A stretch of 64,000 bases of DNA from Candidatus Limnocylindrales bacterium (GTDB lineage: Bacteria; Chloroflexota; Limnocylindria; Limnocylindrales; CSP1-4): positions 1,511 through 65,510 of the forward strand of contig JBBRCU010000011.1 of assembly GCA_038204565.1 (NCBI GenBank), read 5' to 3'. Under the pieces are notes generated by a model. That model was not told where the DNA came from. It saw only the letters and a list, made by a program, of their open reading frames with translations, and made no database searches. A program made the position numbers and the translations under genes. Positions 16,841-43,209 of this stretch are shown here, piece by piece. The stretch's first letter is position 1, and the number at the start of each line of letters is the position of its first letter.

Positions 16841-17128
16841 GAACTCTCCCCGTCCTGGCCCGCCGCAGACGGACCCGTTGCTGAAGATCGACGACGGCTG
16901 GGACCCGGACGAAGCGGGCGGATGAGCCGTCGGAATGCGAACGGCCGAAGGATACGGGCTGCGCCGCGATCGCGAAACTGGCCGACCAACGTAGGCGGTG
17001 CATCCGGGTACCATGGGCGCCGCGCGCGCTCCGATCGTGCCCTGGCGAAAAGGGCTCTCAGTCTCCCTCGACGCTGGTGCAACATCGACCGCATCGTCCC
17101 TCGCCCAGCCGCAACGCGACGGGCCGGG

Positions 17129-23716: not shown

Positions 23717-23813
23717 CGGCGGCCCGCGATCGTGGTCGTCATGCTCCTGCCAGTTCACGGCCTCGCCCTGAATCGGGTCGGCCCGGACGGCGACGATACA
23801 ATGTCGAGCGATC

Positions 23814-25686: not shown

Positions 25687-28600
25687 ATGCCGATTGCCCA
25701 CCGCCTGCCCAGATCACGAGGCACGGCCTCGTCGGGCCGCCCGCGCGGCCTAGCCCGGCCGCTGATCGCAACCGTCGCCGCCACGCTGACCGCCGCCGCC
25801 CTCGGTCTGGCAATGGTCTTCAGCGGGATCGCCAGCGCCTCGACCCCGGTCACGGTCGGCTACCGCGACTTCGGCTACGGCGGGGCGCTCGCGTCCCGGG
25901 CCACATCGGATCCGGAGCAGTCGAAGCTCTGGTACAACGACGGCGCCTGGTGGGCCGGCCTCTTCGTGTCCTCGGGCAAGGGTTCGGGCGGCTCGCACTT
26001 CGACATCTTCAAGTTCAATCCGGTCAACCACAGCTGGGTGGACACGACCCGTCAGATCGACATCCGCGACCTGTCGCATGCCGACTACCTCTGGGACGGC
26101 GCCCACAACAAGCTGTACGTCGCCTCGTCGAAGAGCATCTGCACGGCCGCAATCGCTCCGCCAAGCCAACCCTGCAACGACTCCATCCGGGTCTATCGCT
26201 ACACGTACAACTCGGCTGCTTCGACGCTCGCGACGAAGTACACACTCGACAGCGGCTTCCCGAAGGTCCTCGCCGGCGGTCAGTACAACGGCGGCAACTT
26301 CACCGGCGGCGGCTCCAACGCCGTGACGATCGCCAAGGATTCGGTCGGTGGCCTGTGGGTCGCCTATACCCGGGACGACCCGACGACCGGCGCGCCACCG
26401 AGCCCGCATTTCAACTCGACCGTCTACCTCGCAGCGAGCTCGGACGACGGCCTGACCTGGTCGGCCCAAGCCAAATTCGCCGGTGCCAGCGTCGGCCAGC
26501 TCGACCAGGACAACACCGCCTCGATCGTCGCCTTCGGCGGCACAAATGTCGGCCTGTACTGGACCGACAAGCATGCGACCGGTGCCTCCAGCGCGTTCTT
26601 CGCGACCCACACCGACGGCGATCCGTTCGGCACCTGGTCCGGAGCCGAGACGGTCATCACCGGCACGAATGCCGCCGAGAATCAGGTCAACCTCAAAGCG
26701 GACTCGGCCGGCAAGGTCTACGCGATGATCAAGACCGGCGTGTCGGACCAGGAGAAGCTGTTCGATCGCTCGACGAGTGGCACGTGGACGAGCCACGTCG
26801 TCTCAAAGGTCGCCGACGGCAACACCCGAGCCCAGGTCGTCCTCGACGAGGACCTCGGCCTCGCCTATGTCTTCTCGTCGAGCGGATCGACGACGGCCGG
26901 GGCGATCTACGTGAAGTCCGCGCCGCTGTCGACGCTCGCATTCCCGACCGGGAAGGGCGCCGCGTTCATCCAGAGCGCAACAGACCACGCCATCGATGAC
27001 ATCAGCCTGACCAAGCAGGTCGTCACGTCCACGACCAACCTCGTCGCCGAGGTCAGCGATCGGTCGACCTTGTGGTTCCTCCACGGCGAGTTGAACCTGG
27101 CCGCGGCGGACACTACCCCGCCCGTCGGGACCGTCACGATCAACAACGGCGATGCCGCGACGACCCTCGCGGCCGTCACGCTCGCGGTGCCGGCGACCGA
27201 CGCCGGCCTCGGCGTCAACCTCGTCCGCGTGGTTAATACCACCGGCCATGTCGACGGCAGCGGGATGCTGGACGGAGCGGGGGCCGCGAGCTCCAGCTGG
27301 ACCGCCACCCTCCCGTGGACCGTGTCCGGTGGCGACGGCACGAAGACCGTCTGGGTCCAGTTCCAGGACGGCGCCGGCAATTGGTCCGCCCCCGTCAGCG
27401 ACACCATCATCCTCGACTCGACCGGGCCCGTCGGCACGGTCACGATCAACAACGGCGACGCGGCCTCCGGCGACTCCGCCGTGACCCTGGACGTCACGGC
27501 AACCGATGCCGGTGTCGGGGTCGTCAGCAACGTCCGGATCGCAAACGATCCGGCGACGAGCGGCGGCCTCCTCAGCGACGCGTCGGCGGTGACCTCGGCC
27601 TACGCGACGTCCAAGCCCTGGAACCTGGCACCGGGCCCCGACGGGGCGCGCACGGTCTACGTCCAGTGGGAGGATGCGGTCGGGAACTGGTCGGGCGTGT
27701 CGAACGACACGATCACCCTCGCGGACGTCGTCAAGCCGGTTGGTCACGTCGCCATCAACGGTGGCTCCGTCGGGATCCACTCCCTGTCGGTCACCCTGTC
27801 ATTCCCACTCACGAGTATGGACGTCACCGAGGTCCAGATCTCGAACAGCCCCACGATGGCGGGCGCGACGTTCCGGCCGTTCGCCGCGTCGATCTCCTGG
27901 ACACTCCCGGGTCTGCTGACCAACTACAGCGTCAAGGCGGTCTACGTCGTCTTCAAGGACGGGGCCGGCAACATCAGCGACCCGATCGCCCCCTCGTACA
28001 GCGCCTCCGCCACGGCCAGGGTCGACCTGACCAAGCCGGTCATGCACAGCCCGATCACGCCGCGGTTCTATGCGCCGACGAACCACGTCGGCAGCACCGT
28101 CCCGCTTCGGCTCGGTTGGCCGGTCGCCAGCGACACGGTCACGGGCGTCGGTAGCTATCGGGTCCTGGCGTCCCGTGACGGCCATGCCTACACGGTGCTC
28201 GGCGCACCGACGGTCAACGCCCTGAACACCCTCGTCTACCCAGGCCACACGTATCGTTTCCGGGTGTATGCGGTCGACCGGGCAGGCAACACCAGCGCGG
28301 CGGTCTACACGCCGACGATGCGCGTCCTGGCCTACCAGGATTCGAGCCGGTCCATCCGCTATTCAAGCGGCTGGCATGCCAGCTCGTCCATCGTGTACTA
28401 CGGCGGGACGGCTCGCTGGGCGACCGTCCACGGCGCCAGTGCGAGCCTGACCTTCATCGGACGAAGCGTGGCCTGGACGTCGCTCGTGGCGACGACCCGT
28501 GGCTCAGCCAATGTCTACGTCGACGGCCGCTTCATTGCGACCGTCAACCTCAACACGGCAACCACCTCGGTCCGCCGGATCGTGTTCGCAAGGACGTGGT

Positions 28601-28692
28601 CGACCGCCGGGACCCACACGATCCGCATCGTGGTGCTCGGAACGGCCGGCCACCCGCGCGTCGACGTGGACGACTTGCTCGTCCTCCGGTGA
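25687..28692 (+). CDS. Large secreted protein: Asp-box beta-propeller-like N-domain + 3 Ig-like repeats + Fn3-like + C-terminal beta-sandwich
   Basis: GGAGGA RBS and a signal peptide (...AALGLAMVFSGIASAS). The N-domain carries SKLWYNDGAWWAGLF and a perfect Asp-box SSDDGLTW. Three repeats of about 102 aa start with PVGTVTINNGDA. The C-terminus is homologous to the 8436-10475 C-terminus. Confidence 0.8.
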   Translation: MPIAHRLPRSRGTASSGRPRGLARPLIATVAATLTAAALGLAMVFSGIASASTPVTVGYRDFGYGGALASRATSDPEQSKLWYNDGAWWAGLFVSSGKGSGGSHFDIFKFNPVNHSWVDTTRQIDIRDLSHADYLWDGAHNKLYVASSKSICTAAIAPPSQPCNDSIRVYRYTYNSAASTLATKYTLDSGFPKVLAGGQYNGGNFTGGGSNAVTIAKDSVGGLWVAYTRDDPTTGAPPSPHFNSTVYLAASSDDGLTWSAQAKFAGASVGQLDQDNTASIVAFGGTNVGLYWTDKHATGASSAFFATHTDGDPFGTWSGAETVITGTNAAENQVNLKADSAGKVYAMIKTGVSDQEKLFDRSTSGTWTSHVVSKVADGNTRAQVVLDEDLGLAYVFSSSGSTTAGAIYVKSAPLSTLAFPTGKGAAFIQSATDHAIDDISLTKQVVTSTTNLVAEVSDRSTLWFLHGELNLAAADTTPPVGTVTINNGDAATTLAAVTLAVPATDAGLGVNLVRVVNTTGHVDGSGMLDGAGAASSSWTATLPWTVSGGDGTKTVWVQFQDGAGNWSAPVSDTIILDSTGPVGTVTINNGDAASGDSAVTLDVTATDAGVGVVSNVRIANDPATSGGLLSDASAVTSAYATSKPWNLAPGPDGARTVYVQWEDAVGNWSGVSNDTITLADVVKPVGHVAINGGSVGIHSLSVTLSFPLTSMDVTEVQISNSPTMAGATFRPFAASISWTLPGLLTNYSVKAVYVVFKDGAGNISDPIAPSYSASATARVDLTKPVMHSPITPRFYAPTNHVGSTVPLRLGWPVASDTVTGVGSYRVLASRDGHAYTVLGAPTVNALNTLVYPGHTYRFRVYAVDRAGNTSAAVYTPTMRVLAYQDSSRSIRYSSGWHASSSIVYYGGTARWATVHGASASLTFIGRSVAWTSLVATTRGSANVYVDGRFIATVNLNTATTSVRRIVFARTWSTAGTHTIRIVVLGTAGHPRVDVDDLLVLR
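27121..28035 (+). repeat. Three tandem coding repeats of about 300-309 nt (Ig-like domains, PxGxVxINxG ... DxAGNxS)
   Basis: Repeat starts lie at 27121, 27427 and 27736 (PVGTVTINNGDAATT / PVGTVTINNGDAASG / PVGHVAINGGSVG). Each ends in a ...QFQDGAGNWS / ...WEDAVGNWS / ...FKDGAGNIS type motif. Confidence 0.8.
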
Positions 28693-28838
28693 CCCGATGC
28701 TGGCCAGATCGACGTGGGTCGTGACGGCCAACCGCAGCAGCTCCGGACCGCGCGCCAATCGGCCGCGGTCCGGATCGTTCCTCGCGCGCTGAGCCGGCGG
28801 CACGGCCCGGCACGTCCGCAGCGGACCGGCCACATCCC

Positions 28839-30854
28839 ATGTGGTCGGTCCATCCACGATGTGAGGTCTTTCGGTTGTCGCGTCGCACGCTGGTCCTGAC
28901 GGCCCTGGTCGCCGCGCTTTCTCTGGCGGTCCTTGGCATTTGGCTAGAGACGAAGCCCGGAGGGCTGCCGGTCAGCGCGTTGCCGAGTGCGAGCGGCCCG
29001 GCGAGCTCGCCCACGCCAAGCCCGACCGTGCCCCCGCTGGCCGCCACGGCGACCTATCCGGATGGCCCGTTCGGTTCGCCACTCACTCACGCCCCGACGG
29101 AGGGCCAGGCCCAGGCCAAGCTCTGGCGCAACGACGGAATCTGGTGGGCGACGATGGTCGACCCGGCAAGTCAGCAGCTCCGGATCGCGCGCCTTGACTG
29201 GTCGACGCAGCGCTGGATCGACACGGGCACCCTGGTCGATGGGCGCATCCAGGTCAAGGCCGACGTCGTGTGGGACGGAACCCACCTCCTGATCGTGACC
29301 GCCGGGGCCAAACCGACAGCCGGCCAGGCGGCGAGACTGAGCCGCTTCCACTACGACGCTGGCGCGCAGCGGTTCGCCATGGATCCCGACTTCCCGATCA
29401 CCGTCGTGGCGACGGGGATCGAGGATGCAGCCCTCGCCCGCGATTCAAAGGGAACCCTGTGGTTGAGCTACCGGGTCGGCGGCGTGCTGGTCGTCCGCCA
29501 CACCCTCGCCAACGACGTCCTCTGGTCGCCAGGCAGCGTCCTCGCCGTTGACGGCGTCGTCGGCGCCATCAGGTCATCGGCCCTCGAGAGCGACGGGACG
29601 CGGATCGCGGTCGTCTGGAACCGGCTCGACGACTCGACGCTGCGGGTCGCCTTCCACGCCGACGGCGCGCCGGACACCGCCTGGACGCTGGCCTCGACCG
29701 CGGTCGACGGACTGGGCAAGGCGCCCGGTGGCCTGTCCGTGAGGAGCGTCCCCGGCGCCACCGGCAATCGCCTGCTCGTCGCCTTCGAAACGACGCCGAA
29801 CGCGGTGCCCAAGGTGAATCCCCTCGACGCCGGCGCACTGGTCATGGTCCTCGATCCGGACGGAACCTGGTCGAAGGTGCAGCTCGGCCGGGTCCAGGAC
29901 CACCTGACCGCGCCGATCCTCGCGATCGATCGACAGCATGGCCTCGTGTACGCGATCGCCGCCACGACGGTGACCGGACAGATCACCTACAAGTGGTCGC
30001 CCGCGGCGAACATCGCCTTCGAGTCGGGCCGGGGCACAGAGCTGATCGCGACCGCCAGCGATCTCGCGATCCGCAATCCCGCAACGACCAGCCAGGACAT
30101 CGACAGCACGGCCGGGTTGGTTGTCCTCGCGGCTGATGACGGGACCGGGCGGTACCTCCACGGCGTCCTTTCGACGGGTGTCGCCCCGCCGACCGTCAGC
30201 CCGACATCGTCCCCGTCGCCCGGTTCGTCGGCCCCTCCGCCGCCTGTCGGCCCGCCCGTCGTGAACGTGCTGATCAACGACACGTTCGACCCGTGGCCGG
30301 TCGGGCTGCACTCGCCGGCCGGCTGGGCCATCACGTCCCAGGGCAACGGCGTCGGTCAGCTCCTGATCGCCGGCGTTCCGTCGCCGACGAACCACAGTCT
30401 CGAGCTTGTCCAGACGTCGGTCGTGGGTGCAGTGCGCTCATGCAAGTCGTTCGCTCCGACCGCTGACGGCGTGCTGTTGGTCAACGCCCTCGTTCGGATC
30501 AGCGCGATCGGCACGTCCGACATCGAGATCGCCGCGGTCCGTGGCCCGGGCGGGGAGACGGCGTCGCTGCGCGTCACCCGGCATGGTCTGCTGGCATACT
30601 TCAATGGCACCGCCAAGATCACCACGACCGCCCTCGTGCGGCGCGGGACCTGGTACCGGGTGGCGATCGTGGTCCGCTTCCGGACCCACACGTTCGACTG
30701 GTCACTGGCGACGGCCGGCGGGCAGGGCATCGCCCACGCGAATGGGGCTCGCTGGCGCGATTCGACCGTCGCGGCCGTGGACTCGGTCTGCGCCCAGACC
30801 CCGCAGACGCGAGGCGTCGCGATCTTCCTCGATACCGTCACGGTCCGACACTGA
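28839..30854 (+). CDS. Secreted/anchored protein: paralogous propeller-like N-domain + Pro/Ser linker + unassigned C-terminal beta domain
   Basis: N-terminal TM (TLVLTALVAALSLAVLGIW). AKLWRNDGIWWATMV and WDGTHLLIVTAG align with 25687-28692 and 37147-40029. A PS-rich linker (PPTVSPTSSPSPGSSAPPPP) follows. The start may be TTG 28875 (GAGG upstream) rather than 28839. Confidence 0.75.
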   Translation: MWSVHPRCEVFRLSRRTLVLTALVAALSLAVLGIWLETKPGGLPVSALPSASGPASSPTPSPTVPPLAATATYPDGPFGSPLTHAPTEGQAQAKLWRNDGIWWATMVDPASQQLRIARLDWSTQRWIDTGTLVDGRIQVKADVVWDGTHLLIVTAGAKPTAGQAARLSRFHYDAGAQRFAMDPDFPITVVATGIEDAALARDSKGTLWLSYRVGGVLVVRHTLANDVLWSPGSVLAVDGVVGAIRSSALESDGTRIAVVWNRLDDSTLRVAFHADGAPDTAWTLASTAVDGLGKAPGGLSVRSVPGATGNRLLVAFETTPNAVPKVNPLDAGALVMVLDPDGTWSKVQLGRVQDHLTAPILAIDRQHGLVYAIAATTVTGQITYKWSPAANIAFESGRGTELIATASDLAIRNPATTSQDIDSTAGLVVLAADDGTGRYLHGVLSTGVAPPTVSPTSSPSPGSSAPPPPVGPPVVNVLINDTFDPWPVGLHSPAGWAITSQGNGVGQLLIAGVPSPTNHSLELVQTSVVGAVRSCKSFAPTADGVLLVNALVRISAIGTSDIEIAAVRGPGGETASLRVTRHGLLAYFNGTAKITTTALVRRGTWYRVAIVVRFRTHTFDWSLATAGGQGIAHANGARWRDSTVAAVDSVCAQTPQTRGVAIFLDTVTVRH

Positions 30855-30855
30855 C

Positions 30856-31833
30856 ATGCGAATCATGGTCACCGGCAGCGCCGGGTTCATCGGCTCCCAT
30901 CTCGCGGAGCGCCTTGTCGCCGACGGACACGACGTCGTCGGCATCGACGCGTTCGTCGACTACTACCCGCGCGCCCTCAAGGAGGCGAACATCGCGGGCC
31001 TGCTCGGCGGCCCGCGCTTCACGCTCGTCGAGGCCGACCTCCGACGCGACGAGCTCCTCCCGTCGCTCGAGGGAATCGAGGCCGTGGTCCACGCGGCGGC
31101 GATGGCCGGTCTCCCCCGGAGCTGGACGGAGTTCCAGGACTACATGGACTGCAACATCCTCGCCACCCAGCGGCTGCTCGAAGCCGCCAGGACCACCGGG
31201 ATCCGTCGCTTCGTCCATATCTCCACCTCATCGGTCTACGGCCGGGACGCGGTCGGCGACGAGCGGCTGCCGACTCGCCCGATCTCTCCGTACGGGGTGA
31301 CCAAGCTCGCCGCCGAGAACCTGGTCCTCGCCTTCGTCGACAGCTTCGACTTCCCGGCGACGATCCTCCGCTACTTCTCGGTGTTCGGCCCGCGCCAGCG
31401 ACCGGACATGGCCTATCACATCTTCAGCGAGGCGCTCCTCGACGGACGGCCGATCATGGTCTTCGGCGACGGCGAGCAGACGCGGAGCAACACCTTCGTC
31501 GCTGACATCGTGGGGGCCACGATCGCAGCAATCGAGGGCGGCGCCCAGGGCGAGATCTACAACCTGGGCGGCGGCGAGGTGATCACCCTCAACGACGCCA
31601 TCCGGACGATCGGCGAGGCCCTTGGCGTGGAGCCCGAGATTCAGCACGGGCCGGACCGCCTGGGCGACCAGCGCCACACTCAGGCCGACACCACGAAGGC
31701 GCGCCTGGCATTCGGGTTCCGCCCGGCAATCAGCCCGGCGGCGGGCCTCTGCGCCCAGGCCGAATGGCATCGATCCCTGCGAGCAGGCGGCCCGGCAGAG
31801 CCCACCCACGCCTCGCCCGCGGTCGATCGCTAG
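30856..31833 (+). CDS. NAD-dependent sugar-nucleotide epimerase/dehydratase (SDR family)
   Basis: Rossmann motif VTGSAGFIGSHL and catalytic SPYGVTKLAAE (YxxxK). The start is 1 nt after the upstream stop. Confidence 0.9.
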   Translation: MRIMVTGSAGFIGSHLAERLVADGHDVVGIDAFVDYYPRALKEANIAGLLGGPRFTLVEADLRRDELLPSLEGIEAVVHAAAMAGLPRSWTEFQDYMDCNILATQRLLEAARTTGIRRFVHISTSSVYGRDAVGDERLPTRPISPYGVTKLAAENLVLAFVDSFDFPATILRYFSVFGPRQRPDMAYHIFSEALLDGRPIMVFGDGEQTRSNTFVADIVGATIAAIEGGAQGEIYNLGGGEVITLNDAIRTIGEALGVEPEIQHGPDRLGDQRHTQADTTKARLAFGFRPAISPAAGLCAQAEWHRSLRAGGPAEPTHASPAVDR

Positions 31834-31899
31834 GGGGTTCGTCGAGCGGGCCGTCCCCGGCCCGCTCGGTTGCCCTGGAGGTCTGCGGCCCGGGAACCG

Positions 31900-33120
31900 T
31901 CAGCTGCCGGTCGCCGCGATCCGGCTGAAGGACGCATCATCGAGCCACGTCGTCGAGTCGTAGCGGCCGAGGTCGACCTCGAGGTACGCATTCTGATCGC
32001 TCGCCAGGACGGTGCTGTCGATCGTCAGCACCTGCCACTCCGGACCGATCGTGTACAGCCGCGTGGCGTACGTCACGCCGTCGGCCGAGGCGAGCCGGAT
32101 GCGGACCTCACGGCTCGTTGCAGCGCGCGCAGAGATCGTCACGACATAATGACCGCCGGTCTCGATGACGAGGCCTCCCTGGCGAACCGCAATCGAGGCG
32201 CGCTCCACGCCGGCCGTCGTGATGTCGACCCGAGCCGATGCCGCGCCGCTCGCGTGCTCGGCCAGATCCTGCGACATCACCGCGGAACTCCCGCTCGCGA
32301 CGACGAGCTCCCAGGGGCCGCCCGTCCCGCTCTCGAAGCCGGGGTTGACGATCCCGGTCGTGGACGAAGCCAGCGGGGTCGGCGTCGGCCCTCCGTCCGG
32401 GGTCCGGCTGGGGGTCGGCGAACTGGTTGGCGAATTGGACGGCGACGAGCTCGGACCCGACGAGCTCGGACCCGACGAGCCCGGCGGTCCGCCCGATGGT
32501 GTGACGTTGCCCGCCAGCAGGTCGCGCAGTTCTGCGTCGATTGCCGGCAGGTCGGCGAGGATCTTGACGACGGCCTTGGCCGCCGACTGATAGGCCGCAG
32601 CATTCCGCAGGGAGTTGTCGAGCGCGTCCGAGATCGCCACATGCACCGAGGTGTAGAGCGCGGTCAGGCGCGCCCCGACCGGGGCCGAGGCCCGGAACTC
32701 CAGGAGCCGAGCCGGTGCTGTCGTCGACGCCACGACCTCCGCGTTGAGGCTGCGGAAGATGGCAGCGACGTTGGCTGGCGCGAAGATCGAGCTCGCGAGC
32801 TCCGCCTTGAGGGCCGCGCCGTCGTCCTCAAGCCGGCGGTTGACGACGAGACACGCCTGGATGGCGCTCGGGTCGAAGCCGGGATCCGACGGAGGAACCA
32901 CGACCGGGGTTCGGGTCGCCGTCGGCAGCGACCCGGCGGGATCGTGGGTCTGGCCCGCGGCGCCGGTCAGCAGGCCCGCTCCGAGGACCGCGACGATCGC
33001 CACGACCAGAACCCCCGCGATGAGCTCGGGTCCGATGGATCGGGTCCGGCGCGGCTCCGGCAGCCCCGGCCGCTGCGGTCCGCCGGCGACGGCGTCATCT
33101 TGCGGAGACGGTCCGCTCAC
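31900..33120 (-). CDS. Membrane-anchored protein with helical domain, Ser/Pro linker and C-terminal CBM4/9-like carbohydrate-binding module
   Basis: N-terminal TM (LIAGVLVVAIVAVLGAGLL), linker PPGSSGPSSSGPSSSPSNSPTSSPTPS, and C-terminus NPGFESGTGGPWELV...LEVDLG typical of CBM_4_9. GTG start overlaps the upstream stop (GTGA). Confidence 0.65.
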   Translation of the reverse strand: MSGPSPQDDAVAGGPQRPGLPEPRRTRSIGPELIAGVLVVAIVAVLGAGLLTGAAGQTHDPAGSLPTATRTPVVVPPSDPGFDPSAIQACLVVNRRLEDDGAALKAELASSIFAPANVAAIFRSLNAEVVASTTAPARLLEFRASAPVGARLTALYTSVHVAISDALDNSLRNAAAYQSAAKAVVKILADLPAIDAELRDLLAGNVTPSGGPPGSSGPSSSGPSSSPSNSPTSSPTPSRTPDGGPTPTPLASSTTGIVNPGFESGTGGPWELVVASGSSAVMSQDLAEHASGAASARVDITTAGVERASIAVRQGGLVIETGGHYVVTISARAATSREVRIRLASADGVTYATRLYTIGPEWQVLTIDSTVLASDQNAYLEVDLGRYDSTTWLDDASFSRIAATGS

Positions 33121-33965
33121 GGGTGGGCGGCGGCGATCGGGACGGACCCGGAGAGTTCCATGATTGCATCGTCCACGGGCCGCGCAACCATGCCCGCCAG
33201 CGCCTGGAAGGCGAGGACGAACGTCCGCCCTGAGCCGTCGTCGGCAACGCCGCCCATGACCAGTCGATCGGCGAGCAGATTGGCCTCGATCCCGGCGAGA
33301 GGCAGGTCGAGGTCGGCGTGATTGGTGGCGACGTCGATGGGGCCGATGATCCGGAGCCGATCGTCGGTCCTCGCGATGAGGTAGCGCATGCCCGCGACGA
33401 GGCTCTTTTCCGAGCCGCGGACGTAAACGCCGATGGCCAGCATCGTCATCTCGGAACCATCGCCTTGGCCGGGCCCCGCGCGACCGGACGACAGGACCCT
33501 CGGACGCTGGGCCCCGACCGCCGACAGCCGGTCCGGGCCGGCATCCTGGCCGGTCGCGTTGCTGTCCATCACGGGAACACCGACGCCGCGGTCGGCGGCT
33601 GGCAACGGACTACCGCGGACGATCGCTGCCGACGGCCTGGCTCCCGATGCTCCGCGGGGCGCACCTGGAGCGCCTTCGATACTCGCGGCAAACGGCCGGC
33701 GTCGCAGCCGCAGGTCGAAGCCGCACGCCCGGCAGGCGGTCTCGAAGCCGGACGTCGGCCCCGAGCAGGCCGGACAGGTGGCTGGAGGTGCGAGCAGAAC
33801 CAGGGCCAGGGCGATCGGCCCGAGGCACACGCCGAACACCAGCCAGACCGCCGGATTGCGGTGGCGCCGTGCTGCCAGCCAGGCCGCGCTTGGCCCGAAG
33901 GCGATCGCGGCGACGGCGAGAACCGGTGCAAAGGCGAGAATCGCGTCACCCAATGTCAGGGCCAT
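33117..33965 (-). CDS. Membrane protein with CxxC...CxxC zinc-ribbon and a C-terminal soluble domain
   Basis: Two TM segments are followed by CPACSGPTSGFETACRACGF. The C-terminal 120 aa (MTMLAIGVYVRGSEKSLVAGMRYLIARTDDRLRIIGPIDV...) are unassigned. Confidence 0.55.
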   Translation of the reverse strand: MALTLGDAILAFAPVLAVAAIAFGPSAAWLAARRHRNPAVWLVFGVCLGPIALALVLLAPPATCPACSGPTSGFETACRACGFDLRLRRRPFAASIEGAPGAPRGASGARPSAAIVRGSPLPAADRGVGVPVMDSNATGQDAGPDRLSAVGAQRPRVLSSGRAGPGQGDGSEMTMLAIGVYVRGSEKSLVAGMRYLIARTDDRLRIIGPIDVATNHADLDLPLAGIEANLLADRLVMGGVADDGSGRTFVLAFQALAGMVARPVDDAIMELSGSVPIAAAHP

Positions 33966-34121
33966 CCCCAGGCAATCGGACCATTCACGGGCCCCATGAT
34001 CGCATCGCAATCGACCCGCTGGATGGGAGCGCGGTGCGCGCCGTCACCGCGAATGCCGGGCCCGCCGACCCTCCTGAGCGTGAATCGACCTTCACAACGA
34101 TTTTGAAACCCCCCGCGGCCC

Positions 34122-34151
34122 TTGATTTCGTACCGGTCAACAGCAGATTAT
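34122..34151 (+). promoter_or_regulatory. Candidate sigma70-type promoter in the AT-richer island upstream of ugd
   Basis: TTGATT (34122-34127), an 18-nt spacer, then GATTAT (34146-34151), about 175 nt upstream of GTG 34326. Identified by eye only. Confidence 0.2.
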
Positions 34152-34325
34152 CGTACTGTCCAGATGGGGCTCAGCGGACGATTGCGGAACGCCAGAACTT
34201 ATCCCTCTCCATCGTTTCCGATCTACTACCGCGATCGATCCTGACCCCTAGATGTGCGGCAGCGCCAGACCTCACGGCGCTGCTTTCTGTATGAGCCGGT
34301 GGGCGGCTCGAAGGGGGACTTGAGC

Positions 34326-35774
34326 GTGCGAGTATCGGTCGTCGGGTTGGGGTATGTGGGCCTCGTGACGTCGGCATGTCTGGCGGAGCAGGGCCACGAT
34401 GTCGTCGGCATCGAGGTGTCGGCTCAGCGGATCGAGGCTCTTCTCGAAGGTCGGATGCCCTTCCACGAGCCCGGCCTGGATGTGATGGTGGCCGCGAATC
34501 GCGCGGCGGGGCGGCTGTCCTTCACCGCCGACCCGGCCGCCGTGGCGGATGCCGAGGTGATCTTCGTGGCCGTCGGCACCCATGACGGCAATGGCGGGTG
34601 GCAGACCGGGACGATCCAGGCATGCCTGAACGAGATCGTCCCGCGCCTCGCAGACGAGGCGGTTCTCGTCGTTCGGTCAACGCTTCCGCCGTGGTTCCTG
34701 GCCCGCCTCGCGGGCATCGTCGGGAGGATGCGGGAGGAGGCGGGTCGCGGCGAGGTGCCGGTGATCCTGAACCCCGAGTTCACCAAGGAAGGGACCGCGG
34801 TCAAGGACTTCCTGGAGCCTGAGCGCATCGTCCTAGGGATCGCCCACGATGTCGACGCCCGCGGAGCGGATCGGCTGCGTCGGCTCTATCGAGGGTCGGA
34901 CGCCCCGATCCTCGAGATGAGCGCGACCGACGCCTCGCTCAGCAAGCTCGGCGCAAACCTCTTCCTCGCCACGAAGATCAGCTTTGCCAACGAGCTCGCC
35001 CAGCTGTGCGATCAGTACGGTGCCAACATCGAGCAGGTCGTCGCTGCCATGGCCTACGACTCGCGCATCGGGGGCGGCTTCCTGCGGGCCGGGATCGGGT
35101 TCGGCGGCTCGTGCCTGCCGCACCAGGTCACGATGACCGTCTCGATGGCGGCCGAGAGCGGCCAGCCAACCCCGCTCTTCGCGGCGGTCGACACCGTGAA
35201 TCATCGGCAGCGAGAGCGGATCGTCGAGCGGCTCGCCGCGCTCCTCGACGGCTCCCTCGCGGGGGCCACGGTCGCCCTCCTCGGCGTCACGTTCAAGCCC
35301 GACACGGACGACCTCCGCGAGGCCCCGTCGCTCGACATCGCGGCGCGGCTCATCGAGGAAGGCGCCACCGTCGTGGCGTTCGATCCGATGACGTCCGCTC
35401 TGGAGCGGTTCGGCGAGCTGGTCCCGGGCGTCCAGCTCGCGGCGAGCGCCGACGAGGCGCTGACCCGCGCCGACGCCGCGGCGCTCGTGACCGAATGGCC
35501 GGTCTTCCGCCAGCTCGATTGGCGTCGCGCCGCCGGACTCATGCGCCGGCCGATCCTTGTCGACGGGCGGAATGCCCTGTCCGTCATCGAGATGGTGGAC
35601 GCCGGGTTCGCCTACTCGTCGTTCGGCCGTGGGACCTGGGGAGTCGAGGCGATCGATGAGATCGCAGCCGTGATCGCGGAGTCGCCGGCGGTGCCGGAGG
35701 CGGACGCGATCGCGAGCGACCCGATCGTGGCACGACCGGTCTCGAACGCGCTCGACATGGCCCGGAGCGAGTGA
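34326..35774 (+). CDS. ugd: UDP-glucose 6-dehydrogenase
   Basis: VVGLGYVGLVTSACLAEQGHDV (NAD-binding) and catalytic GFGGSCLPHQV. GTG 34326 follows AAGGGGGA. Confidence 0.9.
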   Translation: MRVSVVGLGYVGLVTSACLAEQGHDVVGIEVSAQRIEALLEGRMPFHEPGLDVMVAANRAAGRLSFTADPAAVADAEVIFVAVGTHDGNGGWQTGTIQACLNEIVPRLADEAVLVVRSTLPPWFLARLAGIVGRMREEAGRGEVPVILNPEFTKEGTAVKDFLEPERIVLGIAHDVDARGADRLRRLYRGSDAPILEMSATDASLSKLGANLFLATKISFANELAQLCDQYGANIEQVVAAMAYDSRIGGGFLRAGIGFGGSCLPHQVTMTVSMAAESGQPTPLFAAVDTVNHRQRERIVERLAALLDGSLAGATVALLGVTFKPDTDDLREAPSLDIAARLIEEGATVVAFDPMTSALERFGELVPGVQLAASADEALTRADAAALVTEWPVFRQLDWRRAAGLMRRPILVDGRNALSVIEMVDAGFAYSSFGRGTWGVEAIDEIAAVIAESPAVPEADAIASDPIVARPVSNALDMARSE

Positions 35775-36505
35775 TGGAGCTCGCCGACTCACCCTCCTCC
35801 GACTTCTCCCCGTCCAGTCGCCGTCGGGCGGGCCTGCTGCGGCAGCTCGCCGCGGGTCTTCTACCGGTCCTCGGAGCGGTCGCCGGCATCGGGATCGGGC
35901 AGCTGTCCGGCCAGTCCGGCGGCGTACCGGCGGTCGGGCTGCTGGTCGTGGCCGTCGGCGCGCTGTCCCTGGTGGCAGCCCGGGCCGTCGCTCGACCGTC
36001 GCCCGATCTCCTCCGGGTCAGCGGCCGCGATGCGCTCCGCAATGAGCTCGACCGGGCCCGCCGTCATCGACGGACCTTCGCCCTCGCCCGCCTCCGCCCG
36101 ATCGGCGGGTCTGCCGCCGCGGGCGCCATGGCAGGTGCTTCGGGCGGGATCGCGGCCGAGACGCTCCGGCTGATCGGGGCGTCCCTGCGCATCACGGATC
36201 GAGCCTGGCTCGATGACGACGATGTCGTCCTCCTGCTCCCTGAGGCTGACCGGGCGACTGCGGACGCCCTCGCCGACCGTCTTCGCCAGGCAGCCCCGGA
36301 CCGATTCACCGCAGACGTCGCGATCGCGGTCTTTCCCGACGACGGGCTGACGAGCGGCGCTCTGCTCGAGGCCCTGGACCGGGAGATGCATGGCGACCAG
36401 CTGCCGTCCCCGCTGCCTCGAACGGCGGCTGCGGCAACGGGCCTCGACGCGTCGCCCGTCGGGATTATCGGATCGGATGTTCGCGTCGAGTCCGGGGTGG
36501 GCTGA
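35771..36505 (+). CDS. Two-TM membrane protein with degenerate GGDEF-like domain (I-site RxxD retained, GGDEF replaced)
   Basis: LRITDRAWLDDDDVVLLLPEADRATADALADRLR aligns with the canonical GGDEF core RxxD-5aa-GGEEF-vvimPdt...A..iAerIR. The start overlaps the ugd stop, and the stop lies 4 nt before the priming transferase start. Confidence 0.5.
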   Translation: MMELADSPSSDFSPSSRRRAGLLRQLAAGLLPVLGAVAGIGIGQLSGQSGGVPAVGLLVVAVGALSLVAARAVARPSPDLLRVSGRDALRNELDRARRHRRTFALARLRPIGGSAAAGAMAGASGGIAAETLRLIGASLRITDRAWLDDDDVVLLLPEADRATADALADRLRQAAPDRFTADVAIAVFPDDGLTSGALLEALDREMHGDQLPSPLPRTAAAATGLDASPVGIIGSDVRVESGVG

Positions 36506-36509
36506 CCCG

Positions 36510-37121
36510 ATGATGGTCGTCGGACCCGGCTTCCTCCGGATCAAGCGGATCATCGACGTGACGCTCTGCATCCTCATCGCCCCCGCGGTCCTGGTCGTGC
36601 TCGGCGTGTGCGCGATCGCGATACGCCTCGACTCGCCCGGACCCGTGTTGTTCACGCAGCAGCGGACCGGGCGCCACGGGAACCGGTTCCCGATGTACAA
36701 GTTTCGCACGATGGTTCGCAACGCCGAGGAACTGAAGCCCTCCCTTCAGCACCTGAACATCCTGCCGCCACCGGACTTCAAGATTCCCGACGACCCGCGG
36801 ATCACCCGGGTCGGTCGGCTGTTGCGCAAGACGAGCCTGGATGAGCTGCCCCAGATCCTGAACGTCCTTCGCGGCGAAATGTCCCTTGTCGGGCCGCGCC
36901 CGACCTCGTTTCACGCAAGCACGTACAGTCTGTGGCACTCGCAGCGCCTCGAGGCCACGCCTGGCATCACTGGCTTGTGGCAGGTCGGTGGCAGGAACGA
37001 GCTCACGTTCGATGAGCGGAATCGGCTCGACGCCGAATACGTGCGGAACATGTCGCTTCGCCAGGATTTCAGGATTATGCTGTTGACAGTCGGATCCATC
37101 ATCAAGCGATCCGGCCACTGA
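36510..37121 (+). CDS. Undecaprenyl-phosphate sugar phosphotransferase (small bacterial sugar transferase, EpsL/WbaP-C type)
   Basis: [13 protein letters not shown]..., PMYKFRTM and [21 protein letters not shown]. Confidence 0.9.
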
Positions 37122-37146
37122 CGGCGGGTGGGGAGAACTGAATAAG

Positions 37147-40029
37147 ATGACGACAACATGGCGGGCGGCCGCCATCGGCCTGGTGTTGACGTCGGTCACC
37201 CTTGTTGGCCCGGTGGCGGCGCAAGCGGCGGGCCGAGCCGCCCCCGCTGCATCGCCGCCAATCGTCTCGGCGATGCCCATCGCCGCTGCGCCGCCGCCGA
37301 CCGTCGTCACCCTCGACGCCGCGGCCCCGTTCGGGACCAAGGACCAGTCGTTCAGCGGGGCGAGCACCGCGCCCTCGGGCTCGAAGCCGGAGAGCAAGCT
37401 CTGGTTCAACGACGGGATCTGGTGGGCGTCGATGTGGAGCACGACGGCGGGCAGGTTCCACATCTTCCGGCTGAGTGACTCGGGCGACGTCTGGCAGGAC
37501 ACCGGGACGACGATCGACAGTCGAGGGAGCACCCGCGGCGACGCACTGTGGGATGGCAGCCATCTGTACGTCGCCTCCCACGATGTCGCCAGCGACTCCT
37601 CCCACAACACGATCAATCGGCCGGCCAGGCTGTATCGTTTCAGCTACAACAGCGGCACCCAGACCTACAGCCTCGACGGCGGCTTCCCGGCCACGATCAC
37701 GACGGTCGCCGTCGAGACGCTCGTCATCGACAAGGACTCGACGGGGACACTCTGGGCGACCTGGACGCAGGCCAAGAAGGTGGTGGTCTCCCACACGGTC
37801 GGCGATGACCTCACGTGGGGAAGCCCGTTCACCCCGGCAATCACCGGCGACACGAGCCTCAGCAGCGACGACGTCTCGTCCGTGATCGCCTTCGGCGGCA
37901 ACCGGATCGGCGTGATGTGGAGCAATCAGGCCAACTCCCATATGTACTTCAGCAGCCATCGCGACGGCGATCCGGACACGACGTGGTCGTCGAGCGAGGC
38001 GGCAACCTCCGGTTCGGGCAGCGCGGACGACCACATCAACCTGAAGACCGATTCGAGTGGTCGGGTCTATGCCGCTGTCAAATCGTCGTTCACGTCGAGT
38101 TCCGCCGTCCTGACCCACCTCCTCGTGCGGGCCGCGGGTGGCGGCTGGTCGGACCATCCATTCGGGACGGTGGCCAACAGCCAGACGCGTCCGATCGTCC
38201 TCGTCGACGAGCCGAACGCGACGCTCCACGTATTCGTGACGGGTGCATACCCCGGCAGGAGCAGTGGCCAGAGCGGGGGCACGATCTACGAGAAGACAGC
38301 GCCATTCTCGACGATGGACTTTCCGACTGGAGCGGGGACGCCTGTCATCCAGGACCCGTCCAGCGCGGACATGAACAACGCCAGTTCTACCAAGCAGAAT
38401 GTCGGGTCAGCGAGCGGCATCGTCGTCCTGGCCACGAACGACTCCACGGGGTTCTACTGGCACGCGAACGAGACGCTGGGCGGCGCCACCACCAGCCCGA
38501 CCGCGAACTTCAGCGGCACTCCGACCACTGGCAGCGCGCCGTTGACGGTGGCCTTCACGGACTCGTCCACCGGCGGACCGACCTCATGGGCCTGGGACTT
38601 CGGCGATCCCGGATCGGGCGTCGCCAACACCTCCACCAGCCGGAATCCAAGCCACGTCTACGCCGCGGACGGGACCTATACGATCAAGCTCACGGCGACC
38701 AACGGATCCGGCTCGGACACGAAGACCCGAACCGGATATGTCACGGTCGCCACCGCGCCGACGGCCGACTTCAGCGGCAGCCCGACGACAGGCAATGCCG
38801 GCCTGAACGTCTCGTTCACGGACTCGTCCGCCGGCGGACCGACCTCATGGGCCTGGGACTTCGGCGATCCCGGATCGGGCGTCGCCAACACCTCCACCAG
38901 CCAGAACCCGAGTCACGCGTATGCCGCCGATGGGACGTACACGGTCAAGCTGACCGCGACGAACACCAACGGCTCGACCTCGAAGACGCGGACCAACTAC
39001 ATCACCGTCGGCACCAAGCCGGTGGCCGATTTCAGCGGTTCGCCGACCAGCGGCAACGGCCCGCTGACCGTCAATTTCAGCGATGCGTCGACCGGCAGCC
39101 CGACATCATGGGCCTGGGACTTCGGCGATCCGGGATCGGGCGCGGGCAACACCTCGGCGGCCCCGAGCCCATCACACCTCTATTCGGCTGACGGGACCTA
39201 CACCGTGAAGCTGACCGTGTCGAACACGAGCGGCACGGACACCAGGACGCGGACCGGCTACATCATGGTCGGCACGGCTCCGACGGCGGCATTCACCGCC
39301 ACCCCGACGAGCGGATCCGCCCCTCTCACCGTGAGTTTCACGGACACATCGACGGGCAGCCCGACGTCATGGTCGTGGGACTTCGGTGATCCGGGATCCG
39401 GCTCGGCCAATGGGTCGACCGCCCGGAACCCGAGCCACATTTACAACGGTGGCGGGACCTACACGGTCAAGCTGACCGCGACCAATGCGAGCGGCTCCAA
39501 CACCGCCACCCAGACGAGCCTGATCAGCGTGACCTCGTCGGCCGTGACACTGACCCTCAACCCGATCGCCGACTCGTACGTGAGCTCGAGCAACCTCACC
39601 GGCAACTACGGGACGCAGACCACGATGAAGGTCCGTGAAGGCGACGGCTCGAGCAGCAACCCCAACTACCGGACCTATCTCAAGTTCGATGTCTCGGGTG
39701 TCTCCGGCACCGTCAGTGCCGTGACGCTCCGTCTGTTCGTGACGGACAGGTCAGCGAACCTGGAGTCCATCTATGTCGTCGGCAACAGCAGTTGGACCGA
39801 GACCGCGATCACGTATTCGAACGCGCCGGCGATCAACGGTAGCGCCGTGGGTACGACGAGCGGGGCTCCGCTCGGGGCATACGTCTCGATCACCCTCGTT
39901 CCCTCGAGTGTCAGCCCCGGCTCCTCGCCGCTGACCCTGGCGATCGAGAGCTCGGCCACGGACAGCTTCGTCGTCGCCAGTCGCGAAGACCCGACGAACA
40001 AGCCGCAGCTGATCGTTACGTTCCAGTAG
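37147..40029 (+). CDS. Secreted protein: paralogous propeller-like N-domain + 4 PKD domains + C-terminal DNRLRE/CBM-like domain
   Basis: Signal peptide (AIGLVLTSVTLVGPVAAQA). SKLWFNDGIWWASMW and WDGSHLYVASH match the two paralogs. Four 87-aa PKD repeats carry WAWDFGD. The C-terminus is ADSYVSSSNLTGNYG...YLKFDVSGV...SSWTETAITYSNAP. Confidence 0.85.
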   Translation: MTTTWRAAAIGLVLTSVTLVGPVAAQAAGRAAPAASPPIVSAMPIAAAPPPTVVTLDAAAPFGTKDQSFSGASTAPSGSKPESKLWFNDGIWWASMWSTTAGRFHIFRLSDSGDVWQDTGTTIDSRGSTRGDALWDGSHLYVASHDVASDSSHNTINRPARLYRFSYNSGTQTYSLDGGFPATITTVAVETLVIDKDSTGTLWATWTQAKKVVVSHTVGDDLTWGSPFTPAITGDTSLSSDDVSSVIAFGGNRIGVMWSNQANSHMYFSSHRDGDPDTTWSSSEAATSGSGSADDHINLKTDSSGRVYAAVKSSFTSSSAVLTHLLVRAAGGGWSDHPFGTVANSQTRPIVLVDEPNATLHVFVTGAYPGRSSGQSGGTIYEKTAPFSTMDFPTGAGTPVIQDPSSADMNNASSTKQNVGSASGIVVLATNDSTGFYWHANETLGGATTSPTANFSGTPTTGSAPLTVAFTDSSTGGPTSWAWDFGDPGSGVANTSTSRNPSHVYAADGTYTIKLTATNGSGSDTKTRTGYVTVATAPTADFSGSPTTGNAGLNVSFTDSSAGGPTSWAWDFGDPGSGVANTSTSQNPSHAYAADGTYTVKLTATNTNGSTSKTRTNYITVGTKPVADFSGSPTSGNGPLTVNFSDASTGSPTSWAWDFGDPGSGAGNTSAAPSPSHLYSADGTYTVKLTVSNTSGTDTRTRTGYIMVGTAPTAAFTATPTSGSAPLTVSFTDTSTGSPTSWSWDFGDPGSGSANGSTARNPSHIYNGGGTYTVKLTATNASGSNTATQTSLISVTSSAVTLTLNPIADSYVSSSNLTGNYGTQTTMKVREGDGSSSNPNYRTYLKFDVSGVSGTVSAVTLRLFVTDRSANLESIYVVGNSSWTETAITYSNAPAINGSAVGTTSGAPLGAYVSITLVPSSVSPGSSPLTLAIESSATDSFVVASREDPTNKPQLIVTFQ
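38497..39540 (+). repeat. Four tandem 261-nt coding repeats (PKD domains)
   Basis: The period is exactly 261 nt (starts at 38497, 38758, 39019, 39280). Repeats 1 and 2 share a 71-nt identical run (38571-38641 vs 38832-38902). Confidence 0.9.
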
Positions 40030-42919: not shown

Positions 42920-43209
42920 GGGACTTGCCTCGGTGTATCCGCTCGGCACATGAGCGGCTCGGCGGCGACCGTTGGGGTAGGTCACCGGTGCGCATCTGCA
43001 ACGTAGCGGCCGAGGCTTCCCTGCGGCTTATCCCCGGATGTCCGCTCGCTTCAACGGGATAGGCCCGGGATCACGTCACCCAAACGGCGGAGGGACCACC
43101 TGCAGCGCGCCTCTCGGGGTTCCAATGCGTCCTCCCATGCGAGCCGCCAGGCATCGGAGGAAGCCAGGTTCGCGAAACCGGCCGAGTCCGTGCCGGACCC
43201 GGCCGAGCT

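Follow-up and report, generated by a model that had tools for sequence, protein, structure and literature searches.

We analysed a stretch of 64,000 nucleotides from Candidatus Limnocylindrales bacterium (Chloroflexota; GenBank assembly GCA_038204565.1, contig JBBRCU010000011.1, positions 1,511 to 65,510 of the forward strand; about 70% G+C), hereafter the window, which carries an exopolysaccharide (EPS) locus of the Wzx/Wzy type. Within this locus lie three paralogous genes, called A, B and C throughout, each of which begins, after a signal or anchor, with a domain that is predicted to fold as a β-propeller. An earlier note on this DNA had proposed the three as candidates for an undescribed enzyme family. 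The coordinates given there for the open reading frames (ORFs) were confirmed, and all three lie on the + strand:

25687..28692, + strand: gene A, 1001 amino acids (aa); signal or anchor, predicted divergent propeller, three repeats of about 100 aa, fn3-like domain, putative terminal β-sandwich (ORF and translation)
25849..27111, + strand: predicted propeller of A, aa 55-475 (BLASTP to C, match to a hidden Markov model (HMM) of the domain)
28839..30854, + strand: gene B, 671 aa; membrane anchor, Pro/Ser linker, predicted degenerate propeller, Pro/Ser linker, predicted ConA-like lectin domain (ORF and translation)
29046..30188, + strand: predicted propeller of B, aa 70-450 (BLASTP to C)
37147..40029, + strand: gene C, 960 aa; Sec-type signal peptide, predicted canonical propeller, four PKD domains, CBM96/DNRLRE domain (ORF, translation, Pfam, NCBIfam)
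37324..38496, + strand: predicted seven-bladed propeller of C, aa 60-450 (AlphaFold2, Foldseek, conservation)

Homology of the N-terminal domains

The N-terminal domains of A, B and C are homologous, far past chance, and span about 400 aa each (about 450 aa had been claimed). In BLASTP comparisons, A and C match with E 7e-58 (33% identity over 431 aa), B and C with E 3e-54 (30% over 411 aa), and A and B with E 1e-28 (24% over 432 aa). The motifs KLWYNDGAWWA, KLWRNDGIWWA and KLWFNDGIWWA, from which the shared pattern KLWxNDGxWWA had been drawn, are all present in the proteins. The domain HMM, run against window ORFs of at least 250 aa, finds exactly three copies, those of A, B and C. G+C content at third codon positions is of the coding type in all three genes (0.86-0.88; 0.88 in A).

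In the translations, a Sec-type signal (…VGPVAAQAAG) opens C and a long hydrophobic signal or anchor opens A, while B has a single hydrophobic anchor followed by a Pro/Ser linker. A cluster look-up returns A and C as unnamed singletons.

Predicted fold of the shared domain

An alignment of the three window domains with 39 homologues (A1) was used as input to AlphaFold2. The model of C aa 60-450 has a predicted local distance difference test score (pLDDT) of 94.5 and a predicted template modelling score of 0.93, and is all-β, with 28 strands. Reading the strand list of the model against the sequence assigns these strands to seven four-stranded blades, and the domain is therefore modelled as a seven-bladed β-propeller, in agreement with the fold proposed earlier. 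In the strand list, the first two strands of each blade, the inner one and its neighbour, are joined by a [D/N]xxG-type turn; the blade openings in C are KLWFNDGIWWA, ALWDGSHLYVA, LVIDKDSTGTLWA, VIAFGGNRIGVMW, INLKTDSSGRVYA, IVLVDEPNATLHV and NVGSASGIVVLA. The N-terminal strand (domain aa 5-9) closes blade 7 as a velcro. Residues of the domain are numbered here so that the residue number plus 59 gives the position in protein C.

The domains had been described as Asp-box propellers. A motif scan of A, B and C for the strict Asp-box SxDxGx[TS]W finds a single occurrence, SSDDGLTW at aa 251-258 of A, which aligns where a canonical Asp-box sits, in the turn that follows strand three of blade 3; neither B nor C contains one. 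The C-D turns of several blades appear Asp-box-like by eye, and the BNR, BNR_2 and sialidase models of Pfam give no match at E ≤ 1 on A, B or C. The description was right in spirit, for a propeller of seven blades whose boxes are mostly degenerate.

Search for a known family

The earlier note could not place the domain in a characterised family, and our searches support this: the propeller belongs to none that is detectable in Pfam, NCBIfam, PHROGs or PDB sequences. Against Pfam-A and NCBIfam at E ≤ 1, the propellers of A, B and C have no propeller match that survives inspection, and against PHROGs nothing is significant (best E 0.1). With PDB chain sequences, a single-protein query returns PKD and CBM96 matches and none on the propeller, the A1 profile returns PKD matches only, and a profile of the N-terminal domain alone (A2) reaches a best E of 0.25, which is spurious. 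Neither profile matches a PDB chain of the GH33, GH93, GH145, PL24, PL25 or PL42 families, even at E ≤ 10. Homology to β-propeller phytases (PF02333) was considered and rejected, since hhalign of A2 against three phytase domains gives a probability of 0.4%; no Pfam phytase match falls on the propeller.

Foldseek searches against the PDB yielded many matches, all at fold level, with query-normalised TM-scores (TMq) of 0.45-0.58 and 8-15% identity. The best match is the PL42 Rha-GlcA lyase FoRham1 (7esn, E 5.5e-8, TMq 0.58), and seven-bladed enzymes top the list (7esn, 7esk, 5mum, 5mvh, 5muk, 6byt and 7drq; E 5e-8 to 1e-5), GH145 being represented by 5mum, 5mvh and 5muk. Other matches include PL24 LOR_107, PL25 Uly1, a GH93 arabinanase (3a71), GH33 sialidases and the seven-bladed lectins PLL and CV39L. 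A pseudaminidase (2w38/3h6j, TMq 0.52) has the highest identity in the list, 15%, and the six-bladed sialidases NanH and NanA score TMq 0.43-0.46, below the 0.58 of the seven-bladed top match. In BFVD, gp425 and gp427 of Bacillus phage G are fold-level matches (TMq 0.62-0.67); tblastn against 50,697 phage records finds no sequence match to the propeller.

The propeller family is not described in the literature searched. Neither its fold nor the broad concept of exported propellers that act on glycans is new. The sequence family itself, the polar signature described below, the link to Wzx/Wzy loci in two phyla and the split into canonical and degenerate members do not appear in the libraries and literature searched. 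Of the proposal of an undescribed enzyme family, the first part thus stands with respect to these sources, whereas enzymatic function is something we infer.

A polar signature separates three orthologue groups

The homologue alignment reveals a strongly conserved signature of 16 polar residues: D65, R67, D73, H86, E131, D182, D183, N201, Q202, D235, D236, H237, K253, R289, K357 and Q358. Across 113 propeller domains taken from related loci, six residues never vary: W33, W57, D65, R67, D73 and W144. Each of the 16 positions is 92-100% conserved among C-type proteins (n=118). Among the top representatives of clusters at 50% identity (n=145), 13 of the 16 positions reach at least 92%, with H86 at 70%, N201 at 83% and Q202 at 90%. 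Y82 and Y108 are also conserved in C-type proteins, and Y378 is among the conserved residues, alongside R67, R289, E131, D65 and D73. The window's own C reads DRDHEDDNQDDHKRKQ at the signature positions, the canonical set with all 16 residues. Both outcomes that the earlier note had set against its proposal came out negative: there was no confident match to a known family, and invariant polar residues are present.

A-type orthologues (n=63) keep about half of the signature. D65, R67, D73 and K357 are at 100%, R289 at 97%, K253 at 94% and Q358 at 92%, while H86 and E131 are lost and D183, D236 and H237 are kept in 32-49%. A of the window reads DRDSNDNDKENQKRKQ, keeping D65, R67, D73, K253, R289, K357 and Q358, with E-N-Q replacing D-D-H. 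B-type orthologues (n=32) keep only D65, R67, D73, K357 and Q358 (88-97%), and B of the window (DRD-E--RLPGGEASQ) retains 5 of 16, namely D65, R67, D73, E131 and Q358. D65, R67 and D73 are at 91% or above in all three types. A and C also have K357 and Q358, as do about 90% of B-types; the B of the window is an exception at 357, where it has Ser. Each of the three cores belongs to an orthologue group conserved in its own right, and the groups diverge at the putative active site; the earlier picture, in which a single catalytic or binding core is combined with various display modules, is not supported in that form.

By strand topology, the signature positions fall in D-to-A inter-blade loops, on the first residues of innermost strands or at B-strand ends. 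This would place them on one anterior face, opposite the A-B DxxG turns and the Asp-box-like C-D turns. In sialidase-type propellers, the active site lies on the face opposite the Asp-box turns. The signature residues differ from blade to blade, and this asymmetry suggests one central site rather than lectin sites repeated on every blade. The signature is also constant across loci with differing glycosyltransferase sets, which fits catalytic machinery better than a glycan-specific binding site.

Family size, taxonomic spread and fused partners

A word-indexed search, which scored 8000 candidates, returned 2041 matches named 'hypothetical', 'PKD repeat protein' and the like, with no Pfam domain on the propeller. 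In an exhaustive profile search of 1.84 billion cluster representatives (50% identity), we found 3110 at E ≤ 1e-3 and 1704 clusters at E ≤ 1e-30. Across genomes representing the GTDB species, one for each, relatives of the propeller are encoded in at least 565 stretches; the best 80 of these are the related loci referred to here, and the window proteins were run on them by tblastn. They comprise 41 Actinomycetota, 37 Chloroflexota, 1 Gemmatimonadota and 1 Terriglobales. The Actinomycetota carriers among these 80 include Micromonospora, Dactylosporangium, Nocardioides, Georgenia, Aquihabitans, Iamia, Gaiellales and Solirubrobacterales, and the Chloroflexota carriers include Limnocylindrales, Chloroflexia and Anaerolineae. 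The closest among the matches listed is a metagenome-assembled genome of Candidatus Limnocylindrales (labelled L001), with 72% identity and identical gene order. One propeller copy is present in 49 of the 80 loci, two copies in 29 and three in 2.

Partner domains were counted in 42 long representatives. CBM96 is found in 19 and PKD in 16, followed by Big_5 (8), Big_9 (7), cadherin-like (7), Laminin_G_3 (6) and β-propeller phytase (2). Beyond the phytase in these 2 of 42, no catalytic domain is fused to the propeller, and the partners are otherwise carbohydrate-binding or spacer modules. Fusion of the propeller to a β-propeller phytase domain is seen in the metagenomic proteins P0157 and P0228. 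In Micromonosporaceae (Micromonospora and Dactylosporangium; L009, L018, L023 and L025), the propeller is C-terminal, the reverse of the domain order in the window, and follows an N-terminal extension without Pfam matches, about 170-290 aa long.

A tblastn search against plasmids gave two matches, named 'Ig-like domain-containing protein' and 'hypothetical protein'. The former is the RefSeq name of the Arthrobacter homologue: on plasmid pAD51 of Arthrobacter sp. D5-1, a 'phytase' with an N-terminal CBM96 adjoins this propeller-family protein (L083, 9057-11294 (-) and 11890-14946 (+)). The latter, on a plasmid of Chondrinema litorale (Bacteroidota; L084, 11062-12237), is a distant stand-alone homologue of 391 aa (24.6% identity, E 3e-8) that adjoins ilvD in a non-glycan context, indicating that the family reaches Bacteroidota and is not always found in EPS loci.

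C-terminal modules

The tails of the three proteins differ, with the following assignments:

27121..28035, + strand: A, three tandem repeats of about 100 aa, aa 479-580, 581-683 and 684-783 (pairwise local alignments, shuffle z 11-27)
28036..28689, + strand: A, possible fn3-like domain, aa ~801-870, and CE2_N-like β-sandwich, aa ~908-983 (weak, sub-threshold Pfam matches: fn3 E 0.0057, CE2_N E 0.014)
30219..30851, + strand: B, predicted ConA-like/LamG jelly-roll domain (AlphaFold2 pLDDT 94.6, Foldseek)
38497..39549, + strand: C, four PKD domains (PF18911 E 9e-68, 224.8 bits, 4 stretches; PF00801 E 2.8e-51, 171.9 bits)
39550..40020, + strand: C, CBM96/DNRLRE domain (PF24517 E 3.6e-29, 102.1 bits, cut-off 26; NF033679 E 5e-22, 78.6 bits, cut-off 34)

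For C, the expected four PKD domains and DNRLRE-like end are borne out by matches above the Pfam and NCBIfam cut-offs. The PKD region also has PDB sequence matches to the PKD domains of ColH, and the CBM96 region a weak one to the alginate lyase 7vbo. The founding CBM96 binds internal alginate chains through a groove lined with Lys and Arg (PMC9971899).

The tail of A had been read as three Ig-like domains, Fn3 and a β-sandwich. The three repeats are real, with 51 identities in 100 positions between repeats 1 and 2; they emerged from direct pairwise alignment with shuffles, whereas a BLASTP self-comparison reported none, and 'Ig-like' is the earlier label only. The fn3 and β-sandwich parts have sub-threshold matches only. 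About 60 A-type orthologues of 800-1110 aa were found, some of which carry SLH domains.

In B, the Pro/Ser linker and unknown β domain described earlier are both present, and the latter is modelled as a ConA-like/LamG lectin jelly-roll, at fold level. Its Foldseek matches are a domain of BT_1020, calreticulin and legume lectins (TMq 0.55-0.66, E 1.7e-7 to 7e-6); Pfam gives no LamG match. Some 35 full-length B-type orthologues are known to us from these searches, none named and none with a Pfam domain, and all 27 that were checked have an N-terminal hydrophobic segment. A ConA-like domain occurs beside the propeller in 18-20 of the 80 related loci.

The EPS locus and its gene order

The glycan context proposed earlier is confirmed as a Wzx/Wzy-type EPS locus, with Polysacc_synt, Wzy_C, Wzz/GNVR plus tyrosine-kinase region, Bac_transf, two family 4 glycosyltransferases (GT4) and one of family 2 (GT2). 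The genes around A, B and C are:

11028-12278, + strand: PF05426 'Alginate_lyase'-like protein (Pfam)
12322-14292, - strand: Wzy (Pfam/NCBIfam)
13920-15167, - strand: GT2 (Pfam/NCBIfam)
15167-17587, - strand: Wzc-like chain-length/tyrosine-kinase protein (Pfam/NCBIfam)
18088-19398, + strand: GT4 (Pfam/NCBIfam)
19326-20726, + strand: GT4 (Pfam/NCBIfam)
20767-22494, - strand: Wzx (Pfam/NCBIfam)
22409-23935, - strand: P-loop protein, 508 aa (Walker-A, weak NTP_transf_5 match)
23814-24998, + strand: second PF05426-like protein (Pfam)
30856-31833, + strand: NAD-dependent sugar epimerase/dehydratase (Pfam Epimerase E 3e-57)
31900-33120, - strand: CBM_4_9 protein (Pfam)
33117-34010, - strand: conserved protein with no Pfam or NCBIfam match (cross-genome conservation)
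34254-35774, + strand: UDP-glucose/GDP-mannose dehydrogenase (UDP-sugar dehydrogenase, UGDH), an enzyme of uronic-acid precursors (three Pfam UDPG_MGDP_dh domains)
36390-37121, + strand: Bac_transf priming sugar transferase, directly upstream of C (PF02397 E 1.8e-62)
41072-42985, - strand: pectate-lyase-like β-helix (PelN N-terminus E 4e-9)

A single nucleotide separates the TGA of B from the ATG of the epimerase gene (window 30852-30858), and the same adjacency recurs in an independently gene-called metagenome contig (L085). Between the TGA of Bac_transf and the ATG of C there are 25 nucleotides, with a GGGGAG motif ahead of the ATG (window 37119-37149). No terminator-like site lies between B and the epimerase gene or between Bac_transf and C; promoter and terminator scans gave no more than expected by chance. 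Judging by the junction, A, B and the epimerase gene probably share an operon, and the arrangement suggests a second one ending in Bac_transf and C. The UGDH gene lies upstream of Bac_transf on the same strand, but a minus-strand ORF (35861-36721) intervenes.

The association extends well beyond the window. At least one EPS gene was detected in 49 of the 80 related loci and at least three in 30, using the window's own proteins in tblastn; an EPS gene or the P-loop gene is present in 61. The window order of Wzx, P-loop, lyase-like, A, B, epimerase, CBM4_9, unknown, UGDH, Bac_transf and C is conserved in related loci. Many Chloroflexota loci have Wzx, P-loop, lyase-like, propeller with ConA-like tail, epimerase, CBM4_9, unknown, UGDH, Bac_transf and propeller with (PKD) CBM96, and in L085 the order is kept from the Wzz gene through UGDH. 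Bac_transf is followed by a C-type propeller in L001, L003, L005, L026, L065 and L076, and UGDH lies beside the propeller in 19 of 80 loci. In Actinomycetota, a repeated order is GT4, GT2, Wzy, propeller-CBM96 and Wzx/Wzz. The locus of Dactylosporangium salmoneum has different glycosyltransferases (propeller, GT2, GNAT-like, GH39-like, GT2-GT2), so the propeller stays associated with glycan synthesis even when the glycosyltransferases change. In both Chloroflexota and Actinomycetota, Wzx/Wzy EPS loci repeatedly include a member of the propeller family.

Several neighbours recur in their own right. No other neighbour accompanies the propeller as often as the P-loop protein (34 of 80 loci), which has no significant family or PDB match; in Micromonospora and Dactylosporangium its gene occurs in loci in which the other EPS genes of the window were not detected. 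Of the two PF05426-like genes, one is found in 18 of the 80 loci and the other in 7. The CBM_4_9 gene and its neighbour at 33117-34010 are kept as a pair in 11-12 related loci, between the epimerase and UGDH genes. Taken together, A, B, C and the lyase-like and β-helix genes give up to six exported candidate proteins that may act on or bind glycans.

Some candidate features were rejected. The + strand ORFs 31870-33321 and 33318-34106 are likely shadow ORFs of high-G+C DNA, as the opposite-strand genes carry the Pfam/NCBIfam matches and the cross-genome conservation; the + strand ORF 41085-42041 was discarded because the Pfam/NCBIfam matches fall on the opposite-strand gene. A tRNA-Leu(gag) of 94 nucleotides called by ARAGORN at 32713-32806 (+) lies antisense within the conserved CBM_4_9 coding region, with no Rfam tRNA at gathering score, and is probably false. 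An Rfam scan found nothing. Upstream of the EPS locus, 1068-4651 (+) encodes an acyl-CoA dehydrogenase and an ADP-forming acyl-CoA synthetase-type protein (CoA_binding, Succ_CoA_lig, ATP-grasp_5), ordinary metabolic genes unrelated to the propellers.

Comparison with known systems

The nearest structural parallels are PL42 FoRham1, GH145 (BT3686) and the PL24 and PL25 ulvan lyases, which are likewise seven-bladed propellers and all fall within the top 45 Foldseek matches. They act on uronate glycans, and the C locus contains a UDP-sugar dehydrogenase. These enzymes have a common anterior site with an Arg neutraliser, a His (or Tyr) as base/acid and a neighbouring His and Tyr (PMC8377490). Arg, Lys, His and Tyr residues are conserved in the C family, and strand topology would place them on the corresponding face; R67, R289, H86, H237, Y82 and Y108, all conserved in C-type proteins, are candidates for such roles. 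However, there is no sequence-level relation (8-15% identity), and the conserved set of the C family is much more acidic, with 7 Asp/Glu. PL42, GH145, PL24 and PL25 enzymes are catabolic, whereas the propeller genes are part of loci for EPS biosynthesis.

GH33 sialidases and the Pseudomonas pseudaminidase share with these proteins a propeller with Asp-box-type turns between strands 3 and 4, of which A has one canonical SxDxGxTW, and the conserved basic and acidic residues of the C family would suit an anionic sugar. In contrast to GH33 sialidases, C is modelled with seven blades rather than six, B and C lack a canonical Asp-box, no BNR or sialidase Pfam model matches, and no FRIP motif was seen in the A, B and C translations. 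Sialidases of this type use an Arg triad, a Tyr/Glu nucleophile pair and an Asp as acid/base; R67, R289, Y378, E131, D65 and D73 would be the conserved residues to consider for such roles in the C family.

Two further systems are functional analogues. WceF of Pantoea stewartii is exported, encoded in an EPS cluster, cleaves its own anionic EPS and shows lectin-like binding (PMC7949094); it is a trimeric β-helix of the tailspike fold with proven activity, not a propeller, and has no homology to C. Bap1 and RbmC of Vibrio cholerae are paralogous secreted proteins with an EPS-binding propeller closed by a velcro, encoded beside EPS genes (PMC10102183), and their outward-facing lectin or adhesion modules differ between paralogues, as the modules of A, B and C do. 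Their propellers are eight-bladed and non-catalytic, while the C family has an asymmetric, invariant polar constellation that is lost in two of the three paralogues.

Proposed function and alternative explanations

We propose that C is an EPS-processing glycanase, either a lyase or a hydrolase, and that A and B are derived EPS-binding tethers, a reading to which we assign a probability of roughly 0.45. It builds on the observed homology, fold, family size and spread, locus association and pattern of residue conservation. The locus would build an EPS containing uronic acid, as the UDP-sugar dehydrogenase, epimerase and PF05426 lyase-like genes suggest. C would be secreted, probably co-transcribed with the priming transferase, and would dock on the polymer through its PKD and CBM96 domains. 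The polar pocket of its propeller, formed by the 16 signature residues on the anterior face, would cleave the EPS by hydrolysis or by β-elimination at uronate, the latter possibly cation-assisted. The outcome may be chain trimming or release, like that of locus-encoded glycanases in other EPS systems; WceF provides a precedent for a glycanase encoded within a Wzy-type EPS cluster (PMC7949094). Catalysis in C is suggested by the invariance of the signature across glycosyltransferase sets, by its blade asymmetry and by its selective loss in two orthologue groups.

A would have lost part of the pocket and B most of it, with D65, R67, D73 and Q358 kept as a common core, to which A and about 90% of B-types add K357 (Ser in the window's B). 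Both would then bind EPS without catalysis and hold the polymer at the cell. B would be membrane-anchored and add its ConA-like lectin domain, and A-type relatives may sometimes use SLH cell-wall anchors.

Several observations weigh against this proposal. Catalysis by C, its substrate and EPS binding by A and B are themselves inferred, and the clustering of the signature in a single pocket is deduced from strand topology. The acid-rich set of 7 Asp/Glu could equally be a metal or cation site. The Foldseek similarity is generic for propellers, and the non-catalytic seven-bladed lectins 8q7u and 6gxs score as well as the enzymes do. CBM96 also sits on a phytase, which makes it weak, non-specific evidence for a uronate substrate in C. 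Other candidate polymer cleavers are encoded in the same locus, namely the two PF05426 lyase-like proteins and the pectate-lyase-like β-helix. By tblastn, 19 of the 80 loci have neither an EPS gene nor the P-loop gene, and some propeller contexts are not obviously EPS loci. Finally, Bap1 and RbmC set a precedent for a conserved propeller whose gene adjoins an EPS locus and which does no more than bind the EPS (PMC10102183).

This last precedent leads to the main rival, in which A, B and C are all non-catalytic matrix or tether proteins whose propellers bind the cell's own EPS while the variable modules attach to the envelope or to surfaces, as a 'double-sided tape'. Bap1 and RbmC share an EPS-binding propeller, differ in their outward domains and are encoded between two vps clusters (PMC10102183; PMC11451748). 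The presence of three paralogous propellers with different modules in one EPS locus is consistent with such a role, as are the membrane anchors of B-types (27 of 27), the SLH domains on some A-types, partner domains that are all binding or spacer modules, and the seven-bladed lectins among the fold matches. The core of D65, R67 and D73 common to all three types, with K357 and Q358 in most, points the same way. On the other hand, 16 blade-specific polar residues that stay constant in C-types across glycosyltransferase sets, 13 of them at 92% or above in the top representatives, would be unusual for a site binding variable glycans. Relaxed conservation in A and B at exactly these positions is the pattern of enzyme and pseudo-enzyme, and the propellers of Bap1 and RbmC have eight blades. 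We regard this explanation as unlikely, though as a serious contender.

The remaining explanations appear considerably weaker. Were these proteins secreted depolymerases for foreign polysaccharides, their position in EPS loci would be incidental to nutrient scavenging. CBM96 and PKD tails are typical of secreted degradative carbohydrate-active enzymes (PMC9971899), and homologues do occur outside recognisable EPS loci (L081 and plasmid pAD51). We nevertheless consider scavenging improbable, given gene orders inside biosynthetic operons that are conserved across two phyla beside Wzy or the priming transferase, intergenic gaps of 1 and 25 nucleotides, and the absence of sugar importer or sugar-catabolic genes among the annotated neighbours. 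It is quite improbable, too, that the propeller belongs, as a highly divergent member, to a family already in CAZy (GH33, GH93, GH145, PL24, PL25, PL42 or a recent one absent from Pfam). The named families do top the Foldseek list, but at a TM-score of 0.45-0.58 and 8-15% identity; the family profile finds none of their PDB chains at E ≤ 10, Pfam and NCBIfam give no match at E ≤ 1, and GH33 and GH93 propellers are six-bladed while the C model has seven blades. Least probable of all, and by our estimate very improbable, is that the acid-rich pocket is a Ca2+-dependent phosphoesterase site, as in β-propeller phytases, acting on phosphorylated glycans or phytate-like substrates. The 7 conserved Asp/Glu with Lys and Arg may resemble a cation/phosphate site, two representatives fuse the propeller to a PF02333 phytase, a CBM96-phytase adjoins it on pAD51, and a P-loop protein is its most frequent neighbour. 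Yet the hhalign probability of 0.4% and the lack of a Pfam phytase match on the propeller speak against it, fusion or adjacency is seen in only about 3 cases, and a propeller joined to a genuine phytase would more naturally complement that activity than duplicate it.

With C as glycanase, the C-type is a good candidate for a new CAZy-type family. A broader proposition is that it founds a new family of carbohydrate-active enzymes, lyases or hydrolases with a novel, acid-rich anterior site, and performs a core extracellular step of a Wzx/Wzy EPS pathway widespread in soil Chloroflexota and Actinomycetota, with A- and B-type pseudo-enzymes as EPS tethers in a 'cut and hold' system built from one fold. 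We advance this broader proposition tentatively, as possible but doubtful.

Implications

The family comprises thousands of sequence clusters and occurs in hundreds of species genomes, including those of the cultivable Micromonospora, Dactylosporangium, Nocardioides, Georgenia and Aquihabitans. Current annotation is blind to the propeller and names the proteins after their PKD, CBM96 or Ig tails. The signature separates the canonical paralogue from the degenerate ones and provides an annotation rule for homologues; it also offers a direct mutagenesis plan, for an enzyme and a binder alike. To our knowledge, the matrix polysaccharides of soil Actinomycetota and Chloroflexota are poorly understood. 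If the canonical type is an enzyme, it would represent a new CAZy-type family and an extracellular processing step in a common EPS pathway. If it is a binder, the 'double-sided tape' principle of Vibrio would extend to other phyla.

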